Notes: a model not told the origin generated them from the letters alone. Positions 3,083 through 23,488 are shown, numbered from the stretch's first letter. The stretch is DNA of 64,000 nucleotides from Candidatus Moraniibacteriota bacterium (GCA_046116545.1 CP175956.1:1558-65557), one strand, 5' to 3'. Program-made: numbers and translations.

Positions 3083-3302
3083 CTTATTGTTTTTTCTAAT
3101 AATTTACTCAAAGAGTGATTGTCATATTTCAATAGCTGACATTAAACGCTCTTCAATTGTTAAAGAATATTATACATTTGAGATTTTTCTCAACATCATA
3201 ATATAACATATTACCCATACTTTGTCCATCGGTTCGAATATGCCAAAATTTCCGACTTGGGGTAAAGGGAAAAATCCCCATTTAAAGGGATTTTTTAAGT
3301 TG

Positions 3303-3329
3303 CTCCGCATCGTGGATGATATTAGAACC
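3303..3329. repeat. 27-bp direct repeat copy 2
   Basis: See copy 1. Confidence 0.7.
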
Positions 3330-6252: not shown

Positions 6253-6385
6253 TATTATACTCCTCTTGTTAAAGAATGTTTATATATATTTGAGACCTTT
6301 CTCAACACAATAATATAACATATTATCCATACTTTGTCCATTGATTCGAATATGTCAAAATTTCTAGTTTGGAGTAAAATAAAAA

Positions 6386-6418
6386 CCACCACTCAGTCAT
6401 TTGACCAAGGGTGGCATT
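6386..6418 (-). terminator. Repeated terminator hairpin family A (GCCACC-loop-GGTGGC plus U-tract), copy 1
   Basis: A 33-nt exact repeat, CCACCACTCAGTCATTTGACCAAGGGTGGCATT, also at 7952-7984. On the minus strand it is followed by TTTTTATTTT. Confidence 0.55.
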
Positions 6419-7818: not shown

Positions 7819-7951
7819 CTTTTATTCTCCTTTTGTTAAAGAATGTTATTAAAAAAATAATAATTTTCTCAATATACAAATATAGCGTATTTTTTATGTT
7901 TTGTCCATCGGTTCGAATATCACAAAATTTTCGGTTCAAGCTAAAAGAAAG

Positions 7952-7984
7952 CCACCACTCAGTCATTTGACCAAGGGTGGCATT
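7952..7984 (-). terminator. Repeated terminator hairpin family A, copy 2
   Basis: Exact copy of 6386-6418. Confidence 0.55.
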
Positions 7985-8767: not shown

Positions 8768-9112
8768 TCAACCTCCTCCATGGTGATATATTGCATTACG
8801 TCGTCCATACATTGCCATTACAGGAATTGGAAATACCTCATTAAAAGGATGATCCGCTATTTCCAATATTTCGATAATATCGTTACACATACTTTCAAGT
8901 CCTGGTCTATCAAATGTCACAAAGGACTTAGAGTACAAACGAGCCATTACATGCTCTTTAGTATCAGTTGTTTCATCTGTGATAAATGTAACTGTAGTAC
9001 TGTCCTCAGAAGTGTTCAGCTTCTTTGCAAAATATTTTTTCAGTTGTTCACGAATTACAGCTTTCATGTCAGCTTCCTCAATAGTCAATCCTGAAATATC
9101 AACGATTGGCAT
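8768..9112 (-). CDS. Tautomerase-superfamily paralogue
   Basis: The start was re-set to the ATG at 9112 (AAGGAG 8 nt upstream); the tracked start at 9118 is a TTG. The protein starts MPIVDISGLTIEEADMKAVIREQLKKYFAKKL, a 4-OT-like N-terminus with Pro1. The promoter is TTGACA-17-TATATT at 9183-9211. Confidence 0.45.
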   Translation of the reverse strand: MPIVDISGLTIEEADMKAVIREQLKKYFAKKLNTSEDSTTVTFITDETTDTKEHVMARLYSKSFVTFDRPGLESMCNDIIEILEIADHPFNEVFPIPVMAMYGRRNAIYHHGGG

Positions 9113-9294
9113 ATTCAATGCTCCTTTTAAATGTTTTTATTGACTCAAAAAATGAGCATTTATTAAAAAACTACGACGCTTAAATATACTAAAAAAGCAC
9201 TATTTTGTCAATCTAATAAAGATGTGCTAAAAACAAAAAGCCCCAATGTAAGCAGACTTCTTGTCTTTTCTTACATTGGAGCTGATACTATATA

Positions 9295-10125: not shown

Positions 10126-10197
10126 TTCTAATTTCCTCCTATAAAATATTTTAATTGACTCAAAAAATGAGTGTTTATTAAAAAACTACAACGTTTA

Positions 10198-10226
10198 AAT
10201 ATACCAAAAAAACATCATTTTGTCAA
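10198..10226 (-). promoter_or_regulatory. Consensus sigma-70 promoter (TTGACA-17-TATATT) of the cassette gene 9658-10125
   Basis: A near-identical promoter copy is at 9183-9211. The -35 is embedded in the conserved block ATATTCGAACCGATTGACAAA. Confidence 0.55.
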
Positions 10227-10499
10227 TCGGTTCGAATATGCCCAAATGTCCGACTTGGGGTAAAAGAAAAAATCCCCATTTAAAGGGATTTTCTTAACCG
10301 CTCCCCGACTCGAGTTAGAACTTTTAAGATCCTTACTCTGTAAGGCTTTTCCAGCTATCGATTTGCACATACTCCAACGCGTCCTGAGCAGACGCAAAAA
10401 GTTACAAAAGTGACACAATATTACACATAAAGTTACAAACCACTGTAACTTACTATCACTAATTAAGTTTTATAAAAATAGATAATAATCTTGATGTGG

Positions 10500-11414
10500 C
10501 TACTTACCTCTTTTGCATCGAGGTGTACGTTTAGCTATATCTGGGACTCCTGGACCCGGAGATATAATGCTTGTTGATTTGACATTTTTAAGCTCGTCGA
10601 CTAATTTTGCCATTGGAATGCCTGTCTTTTTGTGTTTTTCACAAAGATTCGCTATATCCTCTCCCGACATTGTTGTACCTGAATCAGCCATAACTAGTGT
10701 GGAAGTATGTAGCATGGAATCATCATAATCATCAGATCTTACCATATAATCCAGGAGCTCTTCTGGAGACAATTCGTCTAACAATCCTTGCATGCCTACA
10801 CCCTGAACATGATGAATTCCAATTTTATTTATCTTTCCTTCACCTACTGAAAAAGCGAGGTAGTCCTCATCATGAAACGGAATATGAAACCCATTATAAT
10901 TAATTCTTACATTACCATCCACTTTCATCTGAAAATGATAATGTGGTTCCTTGCCTGTTTTTCTGTCGTGGTGTCCATGATAGTCTGATTTCGCACAAGA
11001 AAATGACCATTCTATATTTTTATATTTTATGGTAGTTTCAACTTTTTTATTTGATGATTTCTCCTCAACTAAATCATTAATGTTTTTCATTGGATCTTCC
11101 GCATTTGCTACCCAACGGAGATATGCGTCTATTCTGTGAAAGCTATATTTTTCATATAGCAAAGGAAAATATTTTTTCTTAAAACCTTTTGTTTTGAGAA
11201 ACCAATGCAAACAGGGCTTTTTTACACTAAAATGAGAAAGTTTATATCCACAAATGCTACAATCTCCAGACTTAAGAGCATTCTCCAATTCCAAAAAATC
11301 CTTCTCAGCTTTTGTAATCTCTTTATCATTTTTTTCTCTAATTTCCTCATCACTCATGCTATCTAAAAAATTATTGAGTGCTGCATTTCTTCTTTCTGCT
11401 TCAATCCAATCCAT
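10500..11414 (-). CDS. Hypothetical His/Cys-rich (putative Zn-binding) protein; last gene of a five-gene operon
   Basis: 304 aa. Contains a CSICGYKLSHFSVKKPCLHWF Zn-finger-like motif and His clusters (HGHHDRK, PHYHF, IGIHHVQG). Confidence 0.45.
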   Translation of the reverse strand: MDWIEAERRNAALNNFLDSMSDEEIREKNDKEITKAEKDFLELENALKSGDCSICGYKLSHFSVKKPCLHWFLKTKGFKKKYFPLLYEKYSFHRIDAYLRWVANAEDPMKNINDLVEEKSSNKKVETTIKYKNIEWSFSCAKSDYHGHHDRKTGKEPHYHFQMKVDGNVRINYNGFHIPFHDEDYLAFSVGEGKINKIGIHHVQGVGMQGLLDELSPEELLDYMVRSDDYDDSMLHTSTLVMADSGTTMSGEDIANLCEKHKKTGIPMAKLVDELKNVKSTSIISPGPGVPDIAKRTPRCKRGK

Positions 11415-11432
11415 AAAAAATTATTTTAAAAA

Positions 11433-11984
11433 CTACTTACCAAATATTTCAAAAATGAAACAACCTAATGACAAAATAAATACTAAAACACAAATCCATG
11501 ATGAAATAGTGAAGAACATCAAACCTTTTTTATTTTGCAATTTCTCATTAATCTTTTGAATTTTTTCATCACCTTTCTTTGCACTTCCATAAACTTCAAC
11601 ACCACTCAAAATCAATGTTCCAAAAAAATCTGCAAAATTATTATTTTGCAAAAAATCTTTATTAGAAAAATTCGTCAGCACATCTAAATAAAAATCATTT
11701 TTAATATTATTTACATCTTGCGACAATTCTTTGAATAAACGAATTCTCTTTCTCTCTATTCGAATGATCAAAAACAACAATAAAAGCGATATAATAATAA
11801 CAGAAATAAATCCAATCAATCCCCATTTAACATAACCTGATACGACAAATTCTCCATTGAAAACAAAAACACCAAGTATTGCAGCAGAAATGACTGCCAT
11901 ACTTTTAAATAATTCTCTCTCCTGCTTGATGTTATCACTTTCCAAATCAAATATATGATTTAAGTTTTCTTTCTCACTTCTCAT
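11433..11984 (-). CDS. Hypothetical membrane protein
   Basis: 183 aa with 2-3 predicted TM segments. It starts 19 nt after the stop of the upstream gene. Confidence 0.45.
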   Translation of the reverse strand: MRSEKENLNHIFDLESDNIKQERELFKSMAVISAAILGVFVFNGEFVVSGYVKWGLIGFISVIIISLLLLFLIIRIERKRIRLFKELSQDVNNIKNDFYLDVLTNFSNKDFLQNNNFADFFGTLILSGVEVYGSAKKGDEKIQKINEKLQNKKGLMFFTISSWICVLVFILSLGCFIFEIFGK

Positions 11985-12004
11985 AGTTTACGATCAAATA
12001 ATTA

Positions 12005-13069
12005 TTATTTCCTTTCCCTTTTCAATAGTTCAACAACATCATCTTCACCCTCATAACCTCTTAGTCTCCCTTGTAAAATTCCCATTCTATATGTGATTCC
12101 ATCACTCATCAATCGCCAATTTGTTTTCTTGAGATCTTTCTGAATAATTTTTGTTAATTCCATTCTACTATCAAACTCTTCTCGATCTTTTTTATTGTCC
12201 TGCACTGTAAATGGAATGACTACATTCCGTCCAATCTCTGGCGAAAGAAAATTAAGGTGACCATAATTATTCTTTTTTATTATATCCTTTACCAGTTTCT
12301 CTAATTCAGATACCTTTAATCTTTGTATTTTTTCTACTGCATCATAAATGTCTTTTTGATTCTTTCTTTCCTCGATATCTTTTGATAACTCTTTCCAAGA
12401 TTCCATATCTCTCAAAAACTCTTCTCCATCAGATGCTGATACACAACATTCTGCACGGAGTCTTTCAAATTCTTTTTCCTCTTCTTTTTCTTCTTTTTTT
12501 TCTGAAAGATCTATTTCAATATTTTCCTCATGTCCACACTGTAAACATTTATGTGTTGATTTCAATAATGATTGATTACTATCATCATCTATAACAGTAA
12601 CAGCTCCATTACATTCTATGCATCTAGGATCATATTTCCACAAAGCCCCATCTTCCCAATAGGACTGTCTTTTTTTACACGCATCACACACAAGTAAAAA
12701 TAGGACGGATCTGGTGCCATCTTTTTTATTCATCAGATCTCGTGATTCTTCTTTTAAATTTCTGTTACTACAATCAATACAGGACACATTTGGGATAACG
12801 GTATTCAACAAACGATCATCGCTGTCTTTATCTTTTTCCATCCATTTTGTAATTGTATTATTTCTTCTACCAGCTCTTTCCAATTTCATAATCTCAATCA
12901 ATACCCAGTATGCACGTTTTAATTCCTTATCTTTTTTCTTATCATTTGTTTTTTTAATAGATCTGTATGTATCTGCAATCGACAAACATTCATCTATTGT
13001 TTGTTTATCATATAGTTTTTCGTAATAGGATCGATCTTGCAGATATATAATCATAATCACATTTAGCAA
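12005..13069 (-). CDS. Hypothetical protein with two CxxC...CxxC zinc-ribbon motifs and an acidic coiled-coil
   Basis: 354 aa. Zinc-ribbon motifs CIDC...CDAC and CIEC...CLQC; a KEEKEEEKE-rich helix. Overlaps the upstream gene by 7 nt. Confidence 0.45.
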   Translation of the reverse strand: MLNVIMIIYLQDRSYYEKLYDKQTIDECLSIADTYRSIKKTNDKKKDKELKRAYWVLIEIMKLERAGRRNNTITKWMEKDKDSDDRLLNTVIPNVSCIDCSNRNLKEESRDLMNKKDGTRSVLFLLVCDACKKRQSYWEDGALWKYDPRCIECNGAVTVIDDDSNQSLLKSTHKCLQCGHEENIEIDLSEKKEEKEEEKEFERLRAECCVSASDGEEFLRDMESWKELSKDIEERKNQKDIYDAVEKIQRLKVSELEKLVKDIIKKNNYGHLNFLSPEIGRNVVIPFTVQDNKKDREEFDSRMELTKIIQKDLKKTNWRLMSDGITYRMGILQGRLRGYEGEDDVVELLKRERK

Positions 13070-13983
13070 TTTGAGACAGATTCATGATTGGATGATGCTT
13101 TTTCTGTAAAAAATGTCATATTTCCATTATTATCAATTTCTACAAAAACATCACCATTACTCCTTGTTGTAAGCGTCTTCCCAAAAAAATAATCTTGACT
13201 TTTTAGAGACTTGTATTTAACTCCTTTCGAATGCTCAGCGTATCTTGTTGAAACATCTGTATCATCTTTTTCCGACTCACTCGCTTTTGATAAAATCACT
13301 ATTTCAACATCACCAGTAAGATTAAAAAGTGTCGTTGGAAAACCTGACTTATGTCCGTGGTGAGGTGCGATTAAAATATCCACACCATCCTGCATTGCAT
13401 TTATAAAATTTTGATCATTTTTTGCTAGCCATTCCCAGCCTTCTGTCTCCAAGTCGCCACCAAATAAAATCTTCTTACCACCATATTTGATAAGACGTAT
13501 CATGCTGGAGTTATTTTTCACTTTTTTTGAAAGTTCTTCATTTTTTAAAATTTCGTCTATTCCAATAGAAAACACATTTTCTGGATCAAAACCCCATAAA
13601 ATAGTTTCTGGATTTTTTCCTCTATACTTCTTATCAATAAGTTCTTTATATTCTTCATGGATATTCTCATCTCTGGGAAACTCCTCATACTCTCTCTTAC
13701 AAACAAGGTATGGCTCTAACGCTTCTTTCACTTTTTTTGCATTTCTGACATGATCATCATCAGGGTGTGTAATATGCAACAGAGACAGAGGATACTGTCT
13801 CCCAAATCTCGTCTCATATGGTTTCATCCCCAGCCAATTCTTATAAGTACCATTGATAAAATCCACAGGACATCCCTTTTCAGAATGACTGCCACAATCA
13901 ACCATCAAACCATTTCCATTAGGGCAAACAGCCAAGCTACATGCCGCATTATTAACATCAAACACTATCAATTTTGTACTCAT
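13063..13983 (-). CDS. ComEC/Rec2-like metallo-beta-lactamase-fold hydrolase (putative nuclease)
   Basis: 306 aa. Motifs LIVFDVNNAACSLAVCPNGNGLMVDCGS, LLHITHPDDDH (HxHxDH-type) and ILIAPHHGHKSG are typical of the ComEC C-terminal MBL domain. Confidence 0.65.
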   Translation of the reverse strand: MSTKLIVFDVNNAACSLAVCPNGNGLMVDCGSHSEKGCPVDFINGTYKNWLGMKPYETRFGRQYPLSLLHITHPDDDHVRNAKKVKEALEPYLVCKREYEEFPRDENIHEEYKELIDKKYRGKNPETILWGFDPENVFSIGIDEILKNEELSKKVKNNSSMIRLIKYGGKKILFGGDLETEGWEWLAKNDQNFINAMQDGVDILIAPHHGHKSGFPTTLFNLTGDVEIVILSKASESEKDDTDVSTRYAEHSKGVKYKSLKSQDYFFGKTLTTRSNGDVFVEIDNNGNMTFFTEKASSNHESVSNC

Positions 13984-13985
13984 AT

Positions 13986-14642
13986 TTATTTATTACTTTT
14001 TAAATTTAATAAAACTGTTTTAAAAACAAGTCCCCTAGCAATTCCACGAGTTCGCCACCAAAATAACAGAAAGATAGACAGATTCACTATAACAAGCACC
14101 CAACTATTACTCAAAAATGCAAAAATAGTCAAAAACAAAAATTCAATCATAATTACACGAGAGAATAAATAATTTCTATTCACCACCCTCATTTCTTCCT
14201 GATCACTTACACTCGAATATAACTTCCAAAAAATATCTTGTGATAATTTATCATCTTCTTTTTGTTTTCGAAAAAATGACAAATCAGAATATTCTTTATC
14301 AAAAATTTTCAACTGATTCTTTGGGAAATCCAAAATATGAATAATCTCACCTCTTTGATAATCACTTTTCAAAATAGGATTCTCCTTGTATAAAAAAATA
14401 TGTGATGGTCTTCTACGCTTAAAAAATATATCAACGACCCATTCAAGCGCATGTGCAACAGTCTGCAATAATTCCCCAACAATAAAAGCTGAACAGAAAA
14501 ATAAAAATGTATACAAAAAATCTAGATCTCCTGCAATATGCACTTGATAATTTTTGGCAAAAAAAAGAAAAATAGCAGCAATAAAAAATCCACCAGGCAT
14601 TACACGTATCAAGAGCTCATCAATTGTAAATTTATTAGTCAT
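13986..14642 (-). CDS. Hypothetical membrane protein (first gene of the five-gene operon)
   Basis: 218 aa with N- and C-terminal TM pairs. Its stop lies 3 nt before the MBL gene start. Confidence 0.45.
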   Translation of the reverse strand: MTNKFTIDELLIRVMPGGFFIAAIFLFFAKNYQVHIAGDLDFLYTFLFFCSAFIVGELLQTVAHALEWVVDIFFKRRRPSHIFLYKENPILKSDYQRGEIIHILDFPKNQLKIFDKEYSDLSFFRKQKEDDKLSQDIFWKLYSSVSDQEEMRVVNRNYLFSRVIMIEFLFLTIFAFLSNSWVLVIVNLSIFLLFWWRTRGIARGLVFKTVLLNLKSNK

Positions 14643-14695: not shown

Positions 14696-15316
14696 TTAAC
14701 ATAAATCCCCTGGAAGTGATGTCACTACCACCCCTTGTATCACACAATTTTCTGTTAATATAATTGGTTTATGTTTTTTCTTGCTTGACTTCGGACGAAG
14801 AATGACAACTTCATCAGTTTGTTCAAAAAACTTTACTGTTGCCTCATCATTAATCAATGCAACTACTTTGTCTCCTTTTTCCGCAGTTGACTGCTTACGT
14901 ATAAGTAGTAAATCACCTCCATTTATACCTGCAAGATTCATTGAACTTCCCTTTGCTCGCAAGAGAAAATATTCAAAGCCTTTTTTTGCAAGCTTTGTTG
15001 AAACAGGTATTTTTGCTTGAATGTTCTCTTTAGCAAATATTGGTGTCCCACAAGCAACTGAACCTACTAAAGGAATGTCTATTGTGCTTATGGATTGTAT
15101 TGGCTGTGTATTGGTAAGAATAAGACTTCTGCCATTTTTTTTAATCAAATTTGCCTTAATGAGACGATCCACAACCAAACTTGCAGAACGTGGCGATTTG
15201 CCTCCTGTTATTTCATTAATTTCTCGCAAAGAAGGACTCTCTCCATAATGAACAATCCTATTACGAATTAATGCATATGCCTTTTTGTCTTTGTCACTCA
15301 AGTTATTTTTTATCAT
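14696..15316 (-). CDS. LexA/CI-like S24-family transcriptional repressor (prophage-type repressor)
   Basis: N-terminal wHTH (SLREINEITGGKSPRSASLVVDRLIKANLIKK) and a C-terminal S24 peptidase domain (AKGSSMNLAGINGGDLLLIRKQ...GDKVVALINDEATVKFF). It is divergent from the 15400 gene. The start was set at the MIKNN Met. Confidence 0.75.
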   Translation of the reverse strand: MIKNNLSDKDKKAYALIRNRIVHYGESPSLREINEITGGKSPRSASLVVDRLIKANLIKKNGRSLILTNTQPIQSISTIDIPLVGSVACGTPIFAKENIQAKIPVSTKLAKKGFEYFLLRAKGSSMNLAGINGGDLLLIRKQSTAEKGDKVVALINDEATVKFFEQTDEVVILRPKSSKKKHKPIILTENCVIQGVVVTSLPGDLC

Positions 15317-15399
15317 AGTATAAGAAGTATACACTGCCCTATACAAAATTGCAAGCTTCTGCTAGTATGAACATGAATAAATAATCTTCAAAAAACTTT

Positions 15400-16347
15400 A
15401 TGTCAAAAAAAATTCCACAAACTATTGAAAACCAAATAAACACCTACATTCCACAAATACCAGTTGCTTTAAATTCTACATTACCTGATATCACCCTTTT
15501 CAAAGATGTTCATAAGGATATGCAACTAATGCAAACAGCATTAAAACCACAAATGGATTTGCTGCGTAATACAGCAATACAACTATCCAATACCTCAAAC
15601 ACATTTTTAAAACTTGTTGATTTTTCCTATATCACTAAACAACTTACACAACTTCAAAAAGAAAGTGATCGTATTAAAAAAAATATGCGTATTTTTATCT
15701 CTCCCACTTCTATTATCTATCCTCCCGAACCATCAATAGAATATATAGTAGCGCCTCCTCCACCAATTACACTTTCACGCGAACAAGAAGATCGCATTGC
15801 ACAAAAAACTGCAATTTTATTAAGTGAACAACTCAGCCAAGATCACTCCAAAACTGTGCACTCGCTTCCAGAGCCTTTAATTCAACTACCTGCTAATGCT
15901 GTGTGGGAGAATATAGTGATTTCTTTTGAGACTGAAGATAGTGTTGTAATACACTGTAAAAACATGTATTTAGGTAAATACACCGATCTAGATTTATCTT
16001 TCACAAAAAACAAAAGATGCTCCCAATCTTGGCTCTTACTTTATGCTCTTTCTGCGTATGAAGTCAAAGGAGTTGATAGTATAGCTACAGTAAAAACTCT
16101 TGTAGACTCAGGATTTTTTAACAATTCGGCAATAGTTCATGCTACCAGATCTAATCTTGTAAAACACTTAATGAATACTTTTGGAATTCATGACGATCCT
16201 TTTTACAACTATAAAGAATATGGTGGATATAAACCCAAATTTATTCTAAAACCCCTACCTGACCTGCGTGGAAATGGCAATATTCACACACAATCAGGAA
16301 GTCATGATCTAAGAACCGAGAATTATAATGATGACCATCTTTACTAA
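15400..16347 (+). CDS. Hypothetical protein (divergent from the repressor; first gene of the phage-like rightward module)
   Basis: 315-aa ORF followed by an intrinsic terminator at 16348-16377. Confidence 0.45.
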   Translation: MSKKIPQTIENQINTYIPQIPVALNSTLPDITLFKDVHKDMQLMQTALKPQMDLLRNTAIQLSNTSNTFLKLVDFSYITKQLTQLQKESDRIKKNMRIFISPTSIIYPPEPSIEYIVAPPPPITLSREQEDRIAQKTAILLSEQLSQDHSKTVHSLPEPLIQLPANAVWENIVISFETEDSVVIHCKNMYLGKYTDLDLSFTKNKRCSQSWLLLYALSAYEVKGVDSIATVKTLVDSGFFNNSAIVHATRSNLVKHLMNTFGIHDDPFYNYKEYGGYKPKFILKPLPDLRGNGNIHTQSGSHDLRTENYNDDHLY

Positions 16348-16477: not shown

Positions 16478-17764
16478 ATGTCTCAACAACAATTGGTCTG
16501 GTGCACCACAAAGCGCCGTGTTGATGAACTTGTACCTCAAGAGATCAATCCACGTACAATTTCTGACAAGCAAATGTCAGATCTAAAAAAGTCATTGAGG
16601 AAATATAACTTGGTCGAAATTCCTGTTGTGGATTTGGATAACAAAATACTTGCAGGACACCAAAGACTCCTTGCACTAAAAATCCTAGGGCGAGGGACTG
16701 AAACAATTGATGTACGTATTCCTAATCGTGCACTTACTAAAAAAGAATCTGAGCAATATCTCATCGCTAGTAATAAACTTGGTGGCGACTGGGACTACGA
16801 CTTACTCAAACACTTTGATTTAGATATCCTATCAGATGCAGGATTTGATGATATGGAACTTGTCTCGTTTTGGGACAAAGATAATGAATCTATCGATGAT
16901 GATTTTGAAACAACAAAGGAACTAAATAAGATTCATTCCCCTGTCACAAAACGTGGTGACCTTATCATTATGGGAAAACACAAACTTCTTTGTGCAAGTG
17001 CAACTGATCCTGATGCAGTAAAAAATCTTTTTGGAAAAGATAAAGTTGCAATGTATTATAGCGACCCACCTTACAATATTGCTCTTGACTATAACAAAGG
17101 TGTTGGCAATAAAGCAAACTATGGTGGTGATGTTGATGATGATAAATCACCTAAAGACTACAAATTATTTATAAAACAAGCACTAGAAAATGCTATTTCA
17201 GTATCACAAAAAGATCTACACATTTTCATGTGGTGTGATGAAGCTTGGGTATGGGTATTTCAAACTCTCTACAATGACCTTGGTATAAGAAATCGTAGAT
17301 TGAATGTGTGGTTAAAAAATAATGCATCTCCCTGCCCTGATGTCGCATTTAATAAGGTACTTGAATATTGTTGTTATGGCACACTAGGAAAGCCATTTCT
17401 TTCAAAAAACCTTACAAATCTCAATGAAGTAATGAATAGGGATGCTGGTACAGGCAATGACCTACATGATTATGTTACAAATGTCTGGGCAGTAAAACGA
17501 CTAGCTGGTAATAAATATAGTCATCCGACAGAAAAAAATCCTGAACTTCATGAAAAAGCAATTAAACGATGTACAAAACCTGGTGATATTATTTTTGATT
17601 CCTTTTCTGGATCAGCTAGTACCATGATTTGTGCACATCAGCTTGATCGTATTGTATACGCAACAGAGACTTCCGAGGTCTTCTGTGATTTAGCGATTCA
17701 AAGATACGAGAAGCTTACAGGAGATAAAGTAAAAATTATAAAAAAATTCTATGAAGAAAAATAA
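16478..17764 (+). CDS. ParB-like nuclease domain fused to a DNA N6-adenine/N4-cytosine methyltransferase (phage-type DNA modification methylase)
   Basis: 428 aa. The N-terminal ParB/Srx-like region is KILAGHQRLLALKILG. The methyltransferase motif IV is SDPPYN and motif I is FDSFSGSAST (beta-class order IV...I). Confidence 0.75.
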   Translation: MSQQQLVWCTTKRRVDELVPQEINPRTISDKQMSDLKKSLRKYNLVEIPVVDLDNKILAGHQRLLALKILGRGTETIDVRIPNRALTKKESEQYLIASNKLGGDWDYDLLKHFDLDILSDAGFDDMELVSFWDKDNESIDDDFETTKELNKIHSPVTKRGDLIIMGKHKLLCASATDPDAVKNLFGKDKVAMYYSDPPYNIALDYNKGVGNKANYGGDVDDDKSPKDYKLFIKQALENAISVSQKDLHIFMWCDEAWVWVFQTLYNDLGIRNRRLNVWLKNNASPCPDVAFNKVLEYCCYGTLGKPFLSKNLTNLNEVMNRDAGTGNDLHDYVTNVWAVKRLAGNKYSHPTEKNPELHEKAIKRCTKPGDIIFDSFSGSASTMICAHQLDRIVYATETSEVFCDLAIQRYEKLTGDKVKIIKKFYEEK

Positions 17765-18173
17765 ATTAACAAAGCAATTTCTTGAAGAGTTGCGCAAGGT
17801 GCCAATTGTACAAGTTGCTTGTGAAAAAACTGGAATTTCACGCAATAGTGTTTATCGCTGGCGACGTGAAGATAAAAAATTTGCGACACAAATGGATGAA
17901 GCTCTCTCTGATGGTGTTGCCTTCGTAAATGATATGTCAGAAAGCCAACTACTTACCATGATCAAAGAAAAAAATTGGTCAGCAATTAGTTTTTGGTTAA
18001 GACATCGTAATGACAATTACAAAAACAAAGTAGAAATTACTACAAAGGAAGATGTTGAAGAGCTAACACCTTCTCAACAAAAGATTGTGAAGCAAGCTCT
18101 AAAACTTGCATCGCTTAATAAAACTAACTCTATAAATAATTTAAAGAAAAGATATGACAAAAAGAAAAACTAA
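17751..18173 (+). CDS. Phage terminase small subunit (HTH-containing)
   Basis: 140 aa. HTH VACEKTGISRNSVYRWRRE. It overlaps the upstream methylase gene by 14 nt and terL by 20 nt. Confidence 0.55.
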   Translation: MKKNKLTKQFLEELRKVPIVQVACEKTGISRNSVYRWRREDKKFATQMDEALSDGVAFVNDMSESQLLTMIKEKNWSAISFWLRHRNDNYKNKVEITTKEDVEELTPSQQKIVKQALKLASLNKTNSINNLKKRYDKKKN

Positions 18174-19695
18174 TTCAGTGTTACCCACAGCACTGATAAA
18201 CAAAATGATGAAAGACCGTGCAGTACGTACAAGTATTACGAAAGATAGCTTTATGTATTTCTTTCACTTTTACTATGCACATTATGTAAAATATCCAACA
18301 GCCGACTTTCAAAAAGAAATCATGCACCATCTTGAGACAAGTGCAACGGAAAATTTGTATGTGGTTGCTTTTCGTGGATCAGGTAAATCAACAGTTGTAA
18401 CAACTGCTTACCCTATTTGGGCAATACTTGGTAAACAACAAAAAAAGTTTTGTATGATCTTTACACAAACACAGGCACAAGCAAAACAGCACATGATGAA
18501 TATTCGCACGGAGCTTGAAGGTAATGAACTTCTCAAAAGAGACCTTGGACCATTTCAAGAAGAAAGTGATGAATGGGGTTCTCATTCGTTAGTTTTTAAA
18601 AAACACGGTGCACGCATTACAGTTGCTTCTACGGAGCAAAGTATTCGTGGTATCCGTCACAACGAACATCGACCTGATCTTTTTATTTGTGATGATGTTG
18701 AAGACGTACAATCAACTAAAACACGTGAGAGTCGAAATAAAACATATAACTGGTTGCGTGGCGAGGTTGTTCCTGCAGGTGATCGTAATACGAGACTTAT
18801 TATCGTTGGAAATCTACTACATGAAGATTCCCTACTAATGAGAATTAAAGATGAGGTTTCACAAGATAAGGCCGATGGCATATTTAAGTCCTATCCCCTC
18901 CTCGATGACAAGGAACATTGCATATGGCCAGGAAAGTATCCTGATGCTAAAGCATTGGAGAAAGAAAAAAAGAGTGTTGCAAGTGAATTATCTTGGCAAC
19001 GTGAATACCTCTTACGCATTATACCAAGTGATGATCAAGTTATTTATCCAGAATGGCTTCAGTACTATGATGAATTGCCTGGTGAAGATCACAAAGGTTA
19101 CCGTGCAACATATGCGGGAGTAGATCTTGCAATTTCCACAAAGGATTCTGCGGATGATACTGCCATTGTATTTGCTCACATCTATTCTCGATCAGACAAC
19201 CTAAGAATCTACATTCTACCAAATCCTATTGTAAAAAAGATTACATTTCCAGAACAAGTTGATCTTATGAAAGATATTACAAATACTCATCTTTCAGGTG
19301 AAGGTAGTAAGTTATTTGTTGAAAGTGTTGCCTACCAAGAGGCACTACCTCAAATGCTTGAGCATCAAGGAATTAATGCAACAGCCATTAAACCTAAGGG
19401 CGACAAGCGAACACGCCTTGCACTTACATCAACAGCAATAAAATCTGGGATTATTAAGTTTCCACGTAAAGGTTGTAAAAGATTAATTGAACAACTTGTT
19501 GGTTTTGGTGTAGAAAAACATGATGATCTAGCTGATGCATTTTCATTACTCATCAATGCAACAATGGACGAACATTCCAATGAAGGTACTATTCTTCTGT
19601 TTTGGTTAGGTAGTGATGATGACGACGATACACTCTACTGTAGCGACTACGTCGATATGGACAAAAATTGCGATAGAAAGGGTCGACCATTGTAA
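18154..19695 (+). CDS. Phage terminase large subunit (ATPase plus RNaseH-like nuclease)
   Basis: 513 aa. Walker A is FRGSGKST and Walker B is LFICDDVED. Acidic nuclease motifs are GVDLAIS..DDTAIV and HDDLADAF. Confidence 0.8.
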   Translation: MTKRKTNSVLPTALINKMMKDRAVRTSITKDSFMYFFHFYYAHYVKYPTADFQKEIMHHLETSATENLYVVAFRGSGKSTVVTTAYPIWAILGKQQKKFCMIFTQTQAQAKQHMMNIRTELEGNELLKRDLGPFQEESDEWGSHSLVFKKHGARITVASTEQSIRGIRHNEHRPDLFICDDVEDVQSTKTRESRNKTYNWLRGEVVPAGDRNTRLIIVGNLLHEDSLLMRIKDEVSQDKADGIFKSYPLLDDKEHCIWPGKYPDAKALEKEKKSVASELSWQREYLLRIIPSDDQVIYPEWLQYYDELPGEDHKGYRATYAGVDLAISTKDSADDTAIVFAHIYSRSDNLRIYILPNPIVKKITFPEQVDLMKDITNTHLSGEGSKLFVESVAYQEALPQMLEHQGINATAIKPKGDKRTRLALTSTAIKSGIIKFPRKGCKRLIEQLVGFGVEKHDDLADAFSLLINATMDEHSNEGTILLFWLGSDDDDDTLYCSDYVDMDKNCDRKGRPL

Positions 19696-19777
19696 CGCAG
19701 TTCATGTATTTTGCATAGACTTAGCAAAACATACATTCTCTGTCATTAATAGATATATAACAATTTATTAATGATGT

Positions 19778-21076
19778 ATGACGACACAAGAATTATCAAC
19801 AGAAAATATTCGCTATTGCCTATATGCTCGTAAGTCAACTGAATCTGATGAAAAACAAGCTTTATCGATTGAGTCACAAATTAAAGAAATGCTTGCAATT
19901 GCAGAACGTGAAAATCTTAATGTCATTGATATTAGACGTGAATCGCATTCTGCAAAAGATTCTGGGACACGTCCAGTATTTAAAGAACTTTTAGAAGATA
20001 TTCAAAGAGGTCGATATACTGGAATAATAACATGGGCACCTGATCGATTATCTCGTAATGCTGGTGACTTAGGATCTATTGTAGATCTCATGGATGAACA
20101 GAAATTAGCAGAGATTCGTACTTATGGTCAAACATTTAGAAACTCTCCAAATGAAAAATTTCTTTTGATGATTCTTTGTAGTCAAGCAAAGCTTGAAAAT
20201 GACAATAAAAGCATTAATGTCAAACGAGGCTTACGAGCAAAGGTGGAAATGGGCTTATGGCCATCTGTGGCACCTACTGGATATCTAAATATTAAAGAAA
20301 TTGATAAGAAGGGACATGTAAAAATTGATTCTGAACGTGGTCCTATTATAAAAAAAATATTTGAAAAAGTTGCCTATGAAAAGTGGTCTGGAAGGAAGGT
20401 CTATAATTGGTTAAGATTTGAACTTAACTTCAAAACAGCAGCAGGTAACAAAAATTTATCTTTAAGTAATATATATCTTGTACTTCAAAACACTTTCTAC
20501 TATGGTACTTTTGAATATCCTCGTGGAAGTGGTAACTGGTATAAAGGAAAGCATAAGCCTATCATCACCAAAGAGCTATTTGATCAAGTACAAGAGCAAG
20601 TCAAAAGCCAAGCACTTACAGCTCGAAAATCAAAAGAATTTGCATTTACCAAAATTATGATATGTGGACAATGTGGCTCAGGCATATCAGCTGATGAGAA
20701 ATTTAAAAAACTTGCAAGTGGTGATGTTAAAAGATATGTATATTACCTATGTGCAAAATCAAAAGATGTTAATTGCAAAGGGTGTTACACCGAAGAAAAA
20801 GCTCTAATTCAAGAATTTAAAAAACTTGTCGATACAATTGGCATTAATGAAAAAGTTATGCGGGAGAAAATTAAAAAAGAGGTAACTCGAATTAAAAAAT
20901 TTCAACAATCTTTACTTAATATTGAGCAAGATATAAAAATTAGTGAAATTGATATTAAGAACTATGCAAAATTTATATTAAATGACGGTGATCTTTATGA
21001 AAAACGAGAATTACTTGATTGCTTTCAGGGTAAATTAGTATTAAAAGATAAAAAATTAACATTACAAAAAATATGA
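19778..21076 (+). CDS. Large serine recombinase/integrase
   Basis: 432 aa. The resolvase catalytic domain is YARKSTESDEKQ...RLSRN, followed by a recombinase domain and a zinc ribbon (CGQCGSG...C..C). Confidence 0.8.
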   Translation: MTTQELSTENIRYCLYARKSTESDEKQALSIESQIKEMLAIAERENLNVIDIRRESHSAKDSGTRPVFKELLEDIQRGRYTGIITWAPDRLSRNAGDLGSIVDLMDEQKLAEIRTYGQTFRNSPNEKFLLMILCSQAKLENDNKSINVKRGLRAKVEMGLWPSVAPTGYLNIKEIDKKGHVKIDSERGPIIKKIFEKVAYEKWSGRKVYNWLRFELNFKTAAGNKNLSLSNIYLVLQNTFYYGTFEYPRGSGNWYKGKHKPIITKELFDQVQEQVKSQALTARKSKEFAFTKIMICGQCGSGISADEKFKKLASGDVKRYVYYLCAKSKDVNCKGCYTEEKALIQEFKKLVDTIGINEKVMREKIKKEVTRIKKFQQSLLNIEQDIKISEIDIKNYAKFILNDGDLYEKRELLDCFQGKLVLKDKKLTLQKI

Positions 21077-21334
21077 GACCACCCTAAAAATAACTGACAC
21101 ACCCGTATTGAAAAAGTTCTTTTAAAAGTGTATAGTAAAGATACAATTTGAAAAACAGGCCCAACCGCCAATTATGGTGAGTGGTCTGAAAATCCAACCA
21201 AAGCAGTAAACTCCTCGTGAGGATGCCTTTGGTTGGTCATATCTAGGAATAGATATGGAGTCAGAAATGGCTCACCTTGCGGGGAGCTTTTTGTATCTCC
21301 CGCAATTATAATTAACCTAATGCAAATAACGCGT

Positions 21335-22276
21335 ATGAAAAATATACCAAAACCAACACTAATCACTATTGTAATAGCAATATTGCTATTTGTTATCATG
21401 CCAAAAGATGACTTTTTTATGCTGTGGCTGCTTATATTCTTATTTTCATTTTTAATCAGCTGGTTGGCACCTAAAATATTTTATCCTATTTTTGCACACA
21501 AACTATCAAAAGGACTATTGAGAACGGTACTTGGCTTATTGACAGTAGCCTGTTTTGTATTATTTGGAATAACAACAAATATGATTACAGATAATGAACA
21601 AAAAATTAAAAAAGATACTGCCAATATTGCAAGTCAAAAGTCGGAGACACTAATTACAAAAGCTGAAAGTTACATCAATGATAATAATATAGAACAAGCA
21701 ACAGTTGTATTATTAGAAGCTAAAAAATTAGATCCTCGCAATAGCAATGTATCAACTCTCCAAAGAGATATTAATAGACTGCAAGATTCTGATGAAATCA
21801 AAAAAATACTAACAAAAATGTCTGATGATGATTTTAATTTACTAATAGACAACAAATTACTTACGGAATTTCTTGTCAATAAAAAATTAAATGAATTATT
21901 TATTAAAGAATTACAAAATGATGGGAATGCAAGAAAAGATTATGTAATTGAAGCTGAACAAAAAAGAAAAGAGGCTGAAAAAGAGAATCAAGAGAAGGCT
22001 GATGAGGAAGAAAGGCTAAAACGAGAATCAACCCTAGAAAGTCAATTCAGTGCATGGGATGGATCACATAGAAACCTTTCGCGTATGATTAAAGATTCCA
22101 TGAATGATCCAAAAAGTTATGATCATGTGGAAACTAGATATTTTGATATGGAAGATCATCTAGTTGTAATCACTACATTTAGAGGATCAAATGCATTTGG
22201 TGCACTTATAAAAAATACTGTCAAAGCAAAAGTGTCACTAGAAGGTGATGTACTCGAAATCATTGAACAATTTTAA
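21335..22276 (+). CDS. Hypothetical membrane-anchored coiled-coil protein
   Basis: The start was re-set to the ATG at 21335 (MKNIPKPTLITIVIAILLF...). The tracked ORF has a non-coding-looking N-terminal extension over a structured region. Confidence 0.45.
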   Translation: MKNIPKPTLITIVIAILLFVIMPKDDFFMLWLLIFLFSFLISWLAPKIFYPIFAHKLSKGLLRTVLGLLTVACFVLFGITTNMITDNEQKIKKDTANIASQKSETLITKAESYINDNNIEQATVVLLEAKKLDPRNSNVSTLQRDINRLQDSDEIKKILTKMSDDDFNLLIDNKLLTEFLVNKKLNELFIKELQNDGNARKDYVIEAEQKRKEAEKENQEKADEEERLKRESTLESQFSAWDGSHRNLSRMIKDSMNDPKSYDHVETRYFDMEDHLVVITTFRGSNAFGALIKNTVKAKVSLEGDVLEIIEQF

Positions 22277-22372
22277 AAAAATACAATCACTCTATATAAA
22301 CTATATCAAAAGAAGGCTACTCTAAAATGAGTAACCTTCTTTTTTGTTTTATATATCTATATTTAAAAAATA

Positions 22373-23488
22373 TTATACATCAATTTTTTTAACATACTTT
22401 TCAAAAACTGGTTGCATTTTTATTAAACCATCTAGTAAAAATGTAATTATCTCAGCATGATCTTCTGTACTATAAACACTTACTTCATTATTTTGTCGTT
22501 TAATTCGTGAAGTAACTTTGTCTTCCATACGTTCCCATTCCAACTCCAACCCAATCTCTCGCTCTATTTCCTCCTTATATGATTCAAATGCATCAAATAT
22601 TTTTTTATTTTCTTCCTTTTTTCCACGATTAATATAAACCTCGTAGCGTGCATATTTCCCAGACACTACAAGACTCATTGATACACCGGACTTTCCTAGT
22701 CCTACAGGAATCCACATTTCAGTTCTTGCTGTTAAATTTTCTGTTAGATGTTTAGTTTGCTCCGTTTTACTTGATGATTCCAGAAATTTTGACCAAAAAG
22801 ATTTTATTTTTTCTTGCCTAGAGCCACGAACCCTCTGACTCAATGTTTCTTTCTTTTGCTTTTCTGCAATCTTAATCATAAATTCTTCTGCATCTTCAAG
22901 TGGAATAATCTGTTTAAAGTCAATAATATAATCTTCTTTGAGTTTATATGGTGTAGCCTTAAAGCACACAATGTCTATCCCATTATTTAAAAGCCACATT
23001 ACAGTCGATGTAACTTCTTTTCTATAGCTACCTGAAACTAAAATCATTCTTTGTGAATAACCTATATTAACTTTTTCAGCATATTCTTCACCATCAAAAA
23101 ATTCTGCTAACATATCCCTTGCACTCTCTTCACAATTTATATCTTCAAGATAATCAGCATATATCATTTCGATATCCTCAATCGATAAACTTGAACAATA
23201 CGACACATATTTCAATGCTTGCCATGTAACGTCTTTTCCCGTGCTATCCAGCTTATTTTCAATAATCACTAAATTACCAGATTTATCTAAGGCTAACAAG
23301 TCCAACCTTTCTTTTGTCTCATCAAATCCTGCAAATTCTTTTTGAATAATTAAGAGTTCTTCTCCAAGGCATGATGGATTTTTTGCTATCCACTCTTGTA
23401 AATTCTTTCGTTCCTTAAATCCAGCCTCTGAAAAAGTTACTGGCGATATTTCATTTAGATCATTATTACTTTTATCTATTATGTACAT
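22373..23488 (-). CDS. PD-(D/E)xK nuclease-fold protein with a C-terminal uncharacterised domain (possibly DUF4268-like), adjacent to the R-M system
   Basis: 371 aa. The N-terminal motif is LDLLALDKSGNLVIIENKLD (D...ExK). Confidence 0.45.
   Translation of the reverse strand: MYIIDKSNNDLNEISPVTFSEAGFKERKNLQEWIAKNPSCLGEELLIIQKEFAGFDETKERLDLLALDKSGNLVIIENKLDSTGKDVTWQALKYVSYCSSLSIEDIEMIYADYLEDINCEESARDMLAEFFDGEEYAEKVNIGYSQRMILVSGSYRKEVTSTVMWLLNNGIDIVCFKATPYKLKEDYIIDFKQIIPLEDAEEFMIKIAEKQKKETLSQRVRGSRQEKIKSFWSKFLESSSKTEQTKHLTENLTARTEMWIPVGLGKSGVSMSLVVSGKYARYEVYINRGKKEENKKIFDAFESYKEEIEREIGLELEWERMEDKVTSRIKRQNNEVSVYSTEDHAEIITFLLDGLIKMQPVFEKYVKKIDV

Follow-up and report, generated by a model that had tools for sequence, protein, structure and literature searches.

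A probable mosaic cargo operon beside a LexA-like repressor gene in an integrative element of a Candidatus Moraniibacteriota bacterium

In the cI-rexAB arrangement of phage lambda, defence genes are co-transcribed with the prophage repressor. The P2 and P4 hotspots of E. coli, as reportedly described by Rousset et al. in 2022, are defence hotspots of temperate phages and satellites. Here, we analysed a locus that resembles both arrangements and that comprises five consecutive minus-strand open reading frames (ORFs), called genes A to E below, in a 64,000-nt stretch of DNA from a Candidatus Moraniibacteriota bacterium (GCA_046116545.1 CP175956.1:1558-65557), which we refer to as the window. The organism, an uncultured, ultra-small bacterium, belongs to the candidate phyla radiation (CPR; Patescibacteria), which makes up a large and mostly uncultured share of bacterial diversity, and to our knowledge little is known about the immunity and the mobile elements of these bacteria. 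Our analysis indicates that A to E probably constitute a mosaic operon of cargo genes, located in the repressor (lysogeny) region of a CPR integrative element of approximately 11 kb or more, and it shows that A and B are the only conserved pair among the five genes.

The closest described relative of this pair is the candidate PDC-M48 of the PADLOC collection, which consists of the small transmembrane (TM) protein PDC-M48A and the metallo-beta-lactamase (MBL) hydrolase PDC-M48B (bioRxiv 10.1101/2024.01.29.577857). The PDC candidates comprise single-gene and multi-gene sets that were predicted by their embedding in BREX, DISARM and type I restriction-modification (RM) loci (bioRxiv 10.1101/2024.01.29.577857). 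A literature search returned no paper mentioning PDC-M48, and it returned 6A-MBL only as a known jumbo-phage defence.

An earlier note, made by a model from the window alone, had described A to E as closely packed minus-strand ORFs, one of them encoding a stand-alone ComEC-type MBL hydrolase, in an island beside a prophage repressor gene, and had proposed them as one candidate system. The ORFs were confirmed in a six-frame ORF list and in the public gene calls of GCA_008633345.1, in which the same five genes are present and the proteins carry the NCBI label Candidatus Moraniibacteriota (Patescibacteria/CPR). All motifs quoted for B, C and E were found and are invariant among homologues, and the surroundings agree with the description; small cassettes form an array there, and RM genes, a gene for a ParB-type methylase and a DUF4268 gene of NucS/PD-(D/E)xK-like type are present. 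Its view of the location as one typical of defence or other cargo agrees with the backbone genes and the defence-rich gene content presented below, and its assignment of B agrees with the profile matches and invariant motifs. The proposal of a single five-gene system did not hold, as detailed below.

We compared the window with related elements in fetched loci, which are denoted by L numbers. The methylase, TerS-like, TerL-like and recombinase genes and the LOOT RNA (16478-21273; Table 1) are oriented divergently from the cargo operon, and the backbone genes are 79-98% identical in L010 and L202. For L202, identity to the window is 79-86% in the case of the DUF4268, serine recombinase, TerL-like, TerS-like and methylase genes, 51% for the S24 repressor and 71% for C. 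L202 lacks A, B, D and E; the slot before C is occupied by a Ymh-domain gene and a 208-aa gene, and the slot after C by a gene for a 900-aa helicase. In DNA sequence, L202 is homologous to this region of the window only in the backbone with its DUF4268 neighbour, in exactly the C gene (12006-13039) and in approximately 150 nt of non-coding DNA located 3' of E (10268-10417). In the IMG/VR contig L173, the backbone and C are likewise kept and the cargo differs. In L010, the identities to the window form a mosaic of 98% for the TerS-like protein, 95% for A, 92% for the methylase, 89% for B, 81% for E, 67% for D and 54% for C, and the S24 gene is inverted and its product only 29% identical.

Because L202 and L173 keep the backbone and C while their cargo differs, and L202 and L010 keep the end segment, we propose that two cargo slots flank C. 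Slot 1, extending from the repressor gene to C, would hold A and B as a mobile two-gene cassette, and slot 2, extending from C to the conserved non-coding segment at the end, would hold D and E. This end segment contains strict-identity blocks such as CTGTGTCAC.TTTGTAACTTTTT and GTTC.AACTCGAGT.GGGGAGC in three elements with different cargo. It gave no match to Rfam, and covariation drawn from only three sequences was too thin to judge; the segment could be an element end, an att-proximal site or a small RNA.

Table 1. Positions in the window of the five genes, the repressor gene and the element backbone.
Feature	Position	Strand	Length	Description or basis
Gene A	13986-14642	minus	218 aa	Membrane protein with 4 predicted TM helices; partner of B
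Gene B	13063-13983	minus	306 aa	Cytosolic MBL-fold hydrolase of the ComEC-like subgroup; probable DNase effector
Gene C	12005-13054	minus	349 aa	ATG at 13054 (public gene calls); proposed element backbone gene separating two cargo slots
Gene C, longer form	12005-13069	minus	354 aa	TTG start (six-frame ORF list)
Gene D	11433-11984	minus	183 aa	Membrane protein of a rare orphan family; proposed slot 2 cargo
Gene E	10500-11414	minus	304 aa	Stand-alone zinc-binding protein; proposed slot 2 cargo
Terminator-like hairpin with U-run	~10262-10291	minus		3' of E; -14.7 kcal/mol, z -2.46
Conserved non-coding segment	~10289-10417	minus	~130 nt	L202 12848-12998, L010 ~8990-9127; proposed end of slot 2
LexA-like S24 autoprotease repressor	14696-15346	minus		Likely true start ATG 15316; TIGR00498, Peptidase_S24
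ParB-N6/N4 methylase	16478-17764	+		Pfam
TerS-like helix-turn-helix protein	17751-18173	+		Pfam
TerL-like protein	18154-19695	+		Pfam, borderline (22.3 bits vs 22.6 cut-off)
Large serine recombinase	19778-21076	+		Pfam
LOOT RNA	21158-21273	+		Rfam RF03000

The same arrangement recurs around relatives of C. A scan of one genome per GTDB species yielded 267 stretches with C relatives, mostly from Patescibacteria, and the counts of C loci given here and below refer to the best 80 of these stretches. In 53 of the 80 loci, the gene directly upstream of C lies on the same strand at a distance of at most 60 nt, and this gene is hypervariable. According to Pfam and PADLOC, the upstream genes include those for BsuBI/PstI restriction endonucleases, KAP NTPases, NERD and Schlafen/AlbA_2 proteins, SMODS cyclases and Cap15, AbiEii-type AAA_21 ATPases, caspase/CHAT proteins, Shedu, SspH, QatA, PifA and mad8, the candidates PDC-S18, PDC-S28 and PDC-S02, and type I HsdR-YgjP strings. 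Downstream of C, we found integrases, a few defence-like genes and ordinary housekeeping genes. Homologues of the backbone genes (methylase, TerS-like, TerL-like, recombinase) are located upstream of C and divergent from it in 43 loci; for 21 to 24 of the other 37, the same-strand cargo run lies at or near the edge of the fetched DNA. Conserved backbone thus stands on both sides of a variable segment, both in those 43 loci and in the DNA homology with L202, and similar elements carry different, defence-rich cargo (L202, L173, L010 and the 53 upstream genes), as in a defence hotspot of a mobile element. The gene content, with a serine recombinase and borderline TerL and TerS matches, suggests that the element is mobile or inducible; it may represent the remnant of a prophage, or else a satellite.

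In some CPR genomes, C is present twice, each time behind different cargo (L015/L018 and L025/L028, which are contigs of the same metagenome-assembled genomes), suggesting several such elements or slots per genome. With diverse defence systems in hundreds of genomes, the slot marked by C offers a handle for mining CPR defence genes upstream of C.

Two further observations concern the recombinase end of the element. LOOT RNA (RF03000, 55-74 bits) adjoins a large serine recombinase gene in the window, in L023 (1654-1792), in L193 (2108-2244) and in L014 (9200-9321), where it lies between a C homologue and the recombinase gene; this suggests that the motif is tied to these recombinases or to element ends. 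In L202 (1244-1262), the DUF4268 gene abuts the recombinase gene, and at this position the window has an extra 1.3 kb (21077-22375), which includes, besides the LOOT RNA, an ORF of 347 aa that matched no family.

Slot 1 of the window contains the pair A and B. Hydropathy analysis of A predicted a soluble loop of approximately 90 aa beside the TM helices, and A has no match in Pfam, PADLOC, NCBIfam or PHROGs. The best profile for B is PADLOC PDC-M48B (PDLC04675; 7.3e-23, 79 bits), which aligns residues 4-286 with profile positions 6-279 of 291, and weaker matches were obtained with LmuA, RTasMBL, 6A-MBL, Avs1a and the ComEC C-terminal domain. The metal-binding motifs H70xxH73xD75xD77H78 and H208H209GH211 are invariant in 35 homologues from CPR bacteria and Bacteroidota. 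In at least 16 metagenome loci, an A homologue immediately precedes B at a distance of -20 to +7 nt; these are all of the loci with a B that is at least 55% identical, and A was found without B in none. Homologues of B with more than 50% identity occur in CPR bacteria, Bacteroidales and Flavobacteriales, and distant relatives occur on plasmids of Proteobacteria and haloarchaea.

B invariably has a membrane-protein neighbour, and this neighbour is interchangeable, with at least four unrelated kinds. Besides A, the partners are an unrelated 4-TM family, located downstream of B in 16 loci and upstream of a more distant MBL in L053, a patatin-like protein with 2 TM helices, and a true PDC-M48A (1.9e-46), which is located 3' of an HsdR gene in L158-L160; the B homologue of L158 is 48% identical. 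By hhalign, homology between A and the 4-TM partner family was not significant. On a Methylocystis plasmid, the gene for a polytopic 200-aa protein overlaps the start of the MBL gene, and a restriction endonuclease gene and a toxin-antitoxin pair adjoin. The variety of membrane partners found for the MBL of candidate PDC-M48 suggests a modular architecture in which a membrane sensor is combined with a nuclease.

A more elaborate array is present in the gut metagenome locus L131 (2305-8547; similar in L113-L140), where genes for an AbiLi-like ATPase, an MBL, a patatin-like 2-TM protein, a B homologue, a 4-TM protein and a third MBL follow one another. The first MBL matches PDC-M48B with 1.8e-121, and the three MBL paralogues are interleaved with membrane proteins. 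The B homologues of L113-L140 resemble proteins labelled Bacteroidales at NCBI.

D and E lie between C and the end segment. The D family has 17 representatives among 1.84 billion proteins. Its members appear in unrelated cargo strings, such as S24-DUF2188-CD-NTase-Cap15-x-D in L192 and HARE-HTH-D-DUF5677 in L190, and outside the two closest elements the D-family profile had no match in the C, B or E loci. E carries a C52xxC55...C68xH70 site together with the invariant residues C140, H148, H158 and H160 and has a basic C-terminal tail. It is widespread, with over 700 protein clusters whose sources range from CPR bacteria to P2-like prophages, and it usually lies in defence islands or prophage-like regions. 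Homologues with approximately 50% identity stand alone in eight further independent contexts, adjoining helicase, AIPR and MmeI-type genes (L004) or a type I-like RM system and a Schlafen-type gene (L007). In L009, the homologue directly follows a YgjP-like gene, in L196 it is part of a Thoeris-like TIR island, in L193 it belongs to another serine-recombinase element, and in L005 and L199 it is surrounded by housekeeping genes; in IMG/VR, homologues lie in P2-like prophage regions.

No solved structural relative of E was found. A PHYHFQM motif had prompted a comparison with HUH endonucleases, and the HUH fold with its catalytic Tyr helix was not present; a weak PADLOC match of E to NsnC (E 0.009) was taken as chance. 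tblastn of E against plasmids and blastn of the whole region against phages gave no match.

The repressor gene, which is located 53 nt upstream of A on the same strand, encodes a protein that matches TIGR00498 (lexA) with 122.9 bits at a cut-off of 110.95 and Peptidase_S24 with 5e-25. Because this protein combines a LexA DNA-binding domain with a dyad of Ser (in GSSM) and Lys (in TVKFF), and because its putative cleavage site, Cys-Gly (VAC-G), resembles that of UmuD, RecA-dependent derepression is predicted, and the cargo operon is probably under SOS control. Cargo operons headed by S24 homologues are also present in L094, L105, L107, L192 and L202 and in 11 of the 80 C loci.

Beside the repressor gene, a divergent 315-aa ORF (15400-16347, plus strand) has no family match. 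Its place is taken by an unrelated gene in L010 (152 aa) and by a different unrelated gene in L202 (278 aa), which makes this another variable position. A small DUF2188 gene, not present in the window, recurs at the head of cargo strings in L010 (4463-4702) and L192 (1097-1324). It lies between the S24 repressor gene and the cargo in L192, and in L010, whose S24 gene is divergent, it directly precedes A; a 73-aa ORF between the S24 gene and A in L094 is probably DUF2188 too.

The transcription unit probably starts at the LexA-like S24 gene, proceeds in the order S24-A-B-C-D-E and ends at the hairpin behind E. No convincing terminator was found inside the A to E block, and the gaps are 2 nt between A and B, 8 nt between B and C (-7 with the TTG start), 20 nt between C and D, and 18 nt between D and E. 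The window is compact, and gaps of at most 20 nt separate 41% of its same-strand neighbour pairs. If gaps are taken as independent, the chance of four such gaps in succession is approximately 0.03, which is only mildly unusual.

In the mechanism that we propose, the S24 repressor would keep the operon low, and its self-cleavage on RecA activation would raise expression upon DNA damage or infection. A might sense or transduce a membrane or infection cue, or it might tether B, and B would degrade DNA, either that of a phage or the cell's own, the latter amounting to abortive infection. C, D and E would act independently of A and B. Because B has a ComEC-type metal site, an obligatory membrane partner and this genomic company, we infer a membrane sensor or tether that is coupled to a DNA-cutting MBL; nuclease activity of B and any anti-phage effect are predictions of this scheme.

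Several observations weigh against the reading of A to E as mosaic cargo of a mobile element. In approximately 13 of the 80 C loci, no recognisable backbone gene was found nearby, and no capsid or tail genes were seen, which together with the borderline TerL match leaves the nature of the element uncertain. The promoter scan was uninformative in this AT-rich DNA (35 sites vs 31 expected), and the DNA around the S24 gene and around A yielded neither a LexA-box-like palindrome nor a palindromic operator. In an hhalign comparison, the similarity of the A family to PDC-M48A-like proteins was not significant (E 0.04, probability 1%), and the authors of the 145 PDC candidates call them untested (bioRxiv 10.1101/2024.01.29.577857). 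Overall, the comparisons support reading A to E as defence-type cargo on a mobile island.

Further interpretations centre on C and E. Both are conserved families with confident structural models and without a functional or structural relative. The four CxxC pairs of C (C92/95, C123/126, C145/148 and C170/173) are invariant among homologues, and its model shows a helical hairpin, two zinc-ribbon beta domains, a coiled coil and a ferredoxin-like (PilO/GspL-like) C-terminal domain. Fold searches with C returned generic matches alone (PilO/GspL-like ferredoxin domains, helical bundles and TFIIS/NrdR-like zinc ribbons), from which no function was inferred. We regard it as rather unlikely that C is a general, CPR-specific partner of defence cargo or its organiser, that E is a new protein conferring immunity or exclusion as a single gene, or both. 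If true, C would be a zinc-ribbon/coiled-coil protein, co-transcribed at the 3' end of any inserted cargo, that senses infection or that controls or scaffolds diverse effectors, and E would represent a previously unseen zinc-binding fold.

A related but more specific idea, to which we give somewhat less credit, is that C is a general co-transcribed partner of upstream effectors, acting as sensor, regulator or scaffold in the manner of a plug-in chassis for CPR defence, and that A and B are the effector module of a C-dependent system. The hypervariable, defence-rich gene upstream of C often ends 0-10 nt before it, and C is also found after type I RM operons with embedded genes (HsdR-YgjP-X-C). 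Between the window and L010, C (54%) is less conserved than its neighbours B (89%) and E (81%), as for a specificity determinant, and the modelled zinc ribbons, coiled coil and ferredoxin-like domain would fit binding or oligomerisation rather than catalysis. However, many upstream cargoes are complete known systems that suffice on their own, such as a CBASS cyclase with Cap15 or a restriction endonuclease with a methyltransferase, and A and B occur without C in at least 16 loci. The position of C is moreover fixed relative to the backbone genes, as for a flanking core gene.

We consider it doubtful, and slightly more so than the preceding idea, that the five genes serve the life cycle of the element and not the defence of the host, for instance with B degrading host or competitor DNA upon induction, A and D acting as holin-like or exclusion proteins, and C and E having replication or regulatory roles. 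The element has terminase-like genes and a self-cleaving repressor, membrane proteins and a nuclease could suit lysis or host takeover, and relatives of C and E are present in a few IMG/VR viral contigs, including P2-like prophages. Because the related backbones of L202 and L173 lack A, B, D and E, however, these genes are dispensable for the element. In addition, tblastn searches with E and C gave no match in 50,697 GenBank phage records, relatives of B are located beside RM genes in Bacteroidota and on plasmids, and E also occurs among housekeeping genes.

It is very improbable that the products of the five genes together make up a novel anti-phage or anti-defence system of several components, as the earlier note had suggested. 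The tight spacing, the single terminator after E with none inside the block, and the retention of the whole set in a second element (L010/L011) would be compatible with such a system. We searched approximately 190 fetched loci for co-occurrence using phmmer, jackhmmer and a D-family profile, and the full set was found only in the window and in L010/L011, a close relative in which the identities of A to E are a mosaic of 54-95%. Among the 80 best C loci searched by phmmer, none contained A, D or E, and only two, distant, MBLs were found; likewise, none of 80 B loci from a metagenome scan with the B alignment contained C, D or E. C, E, D and the pair A and B were each found without the others in dozens of loci, and in L202, which shares the backbone and C, other genes stand where the window has A and B and where it has D and E. 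Because 41% of the same-strand pairs in the window are equally close, tight spacing is weak evidence of a functional unit. No co-occurrence as a unit in divergent genomes was found, and the single system was rejected; only A and B are linked. Unlinked genes in relatives were an outcome that the earlier note itself had named as refuting its proposal.

A split ComEC-like device for DNA uptake or competence, formed by A and B, is scarcely credible, even though B has ComEC C-terminal MBL motifs (TIGR00361, 8.8e-7) and A is polytopic, because neither protein matches the Competence (PF03772) channel domain, so that the full ComEC channel that the earlier note had named as evidence against its own proposal is absent, and because TIGR00361 matches only residues 144-253 of B, with 27 bits vs a cut-off of 190, and the pair is patchy across phyla and located on mobile islands.

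The cassette array consists of small minus-strand ORFs that are separated by repeated modules of approximately 100-130 nt (3143-3306, 6255-6418, 7822-7984, 9121-9213 and 10136-10304). Each module contains a terminator-like hairpin, a TTGACA-17-TATATT promoter-like site and a ribosome-binding site, and no integron-type integrase was seen for the array.

Compared with known systems, B falls in the same ComEC-like MBL subgroup as the MBL proteins of Avs1a (AVAST type 1), 6A-MBL, LmuA and RTasMBL, with matches that are weak but consistent and far below the cut-offs (37 vs 220 bits for 6A-MBL and 17 vs 420 bits for Avs1a). Membership in Avs1, 6A-MBL, Lamassu or DRT was rejected; a STAND NTPase, an ATPase, an SMC-like LmuB and a reverse transcriptase are absent among A, C, D and E. 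The likeness to PDC-M48 is closer: A and B are a two-gene, translationally coupled set of a membrane protein and a ComEC-type MBL, and B matches the PDC-M48B model over its full length. B scores 79 bits, however, vs 403 bits (L131) and 271 bits (L071) for true members, A (4 TM helices, upstream of B) has no PADLOC match at E <1, and the pair is found in a CPR bacterium, within a cargo slot of a mobile element. Because the A component does not qualify as PDC-M48A, we file A and B, on profile comparison, as a new partner variant of the untested candidate kind PDC-M48 and not as a member.

The arrangement of the operon recalls cI-rexAB, in that accessory genes, one of them for a membrane protein, lie downstream of a repressor gene in the same orientation, and S24-headed operons of this kind recur (L094, L105, L192, L202). 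The two differ in that no sequence relationship exists, the repressor here is of the LexA-type S24 family, and co-transcription is here a prediction. From the P2 and P4 hotspots, the locus differs in its Patescibacteria host, in a flanking gene, C, of no known function, in a backbone made up of a large serine recombinase, TerL-like and TerS-like proteins, a ParB-type methylase, S24 and C, and in cargo that appears to be co-transcribed with the repressor. It thereby reveals a family of CPR elements with a recognisable backbone. What the locus shares with the P2 and P4 hotspots is a slot between backbone genes that is filled differently in otherwise similar elements and is rich in known defence systems.

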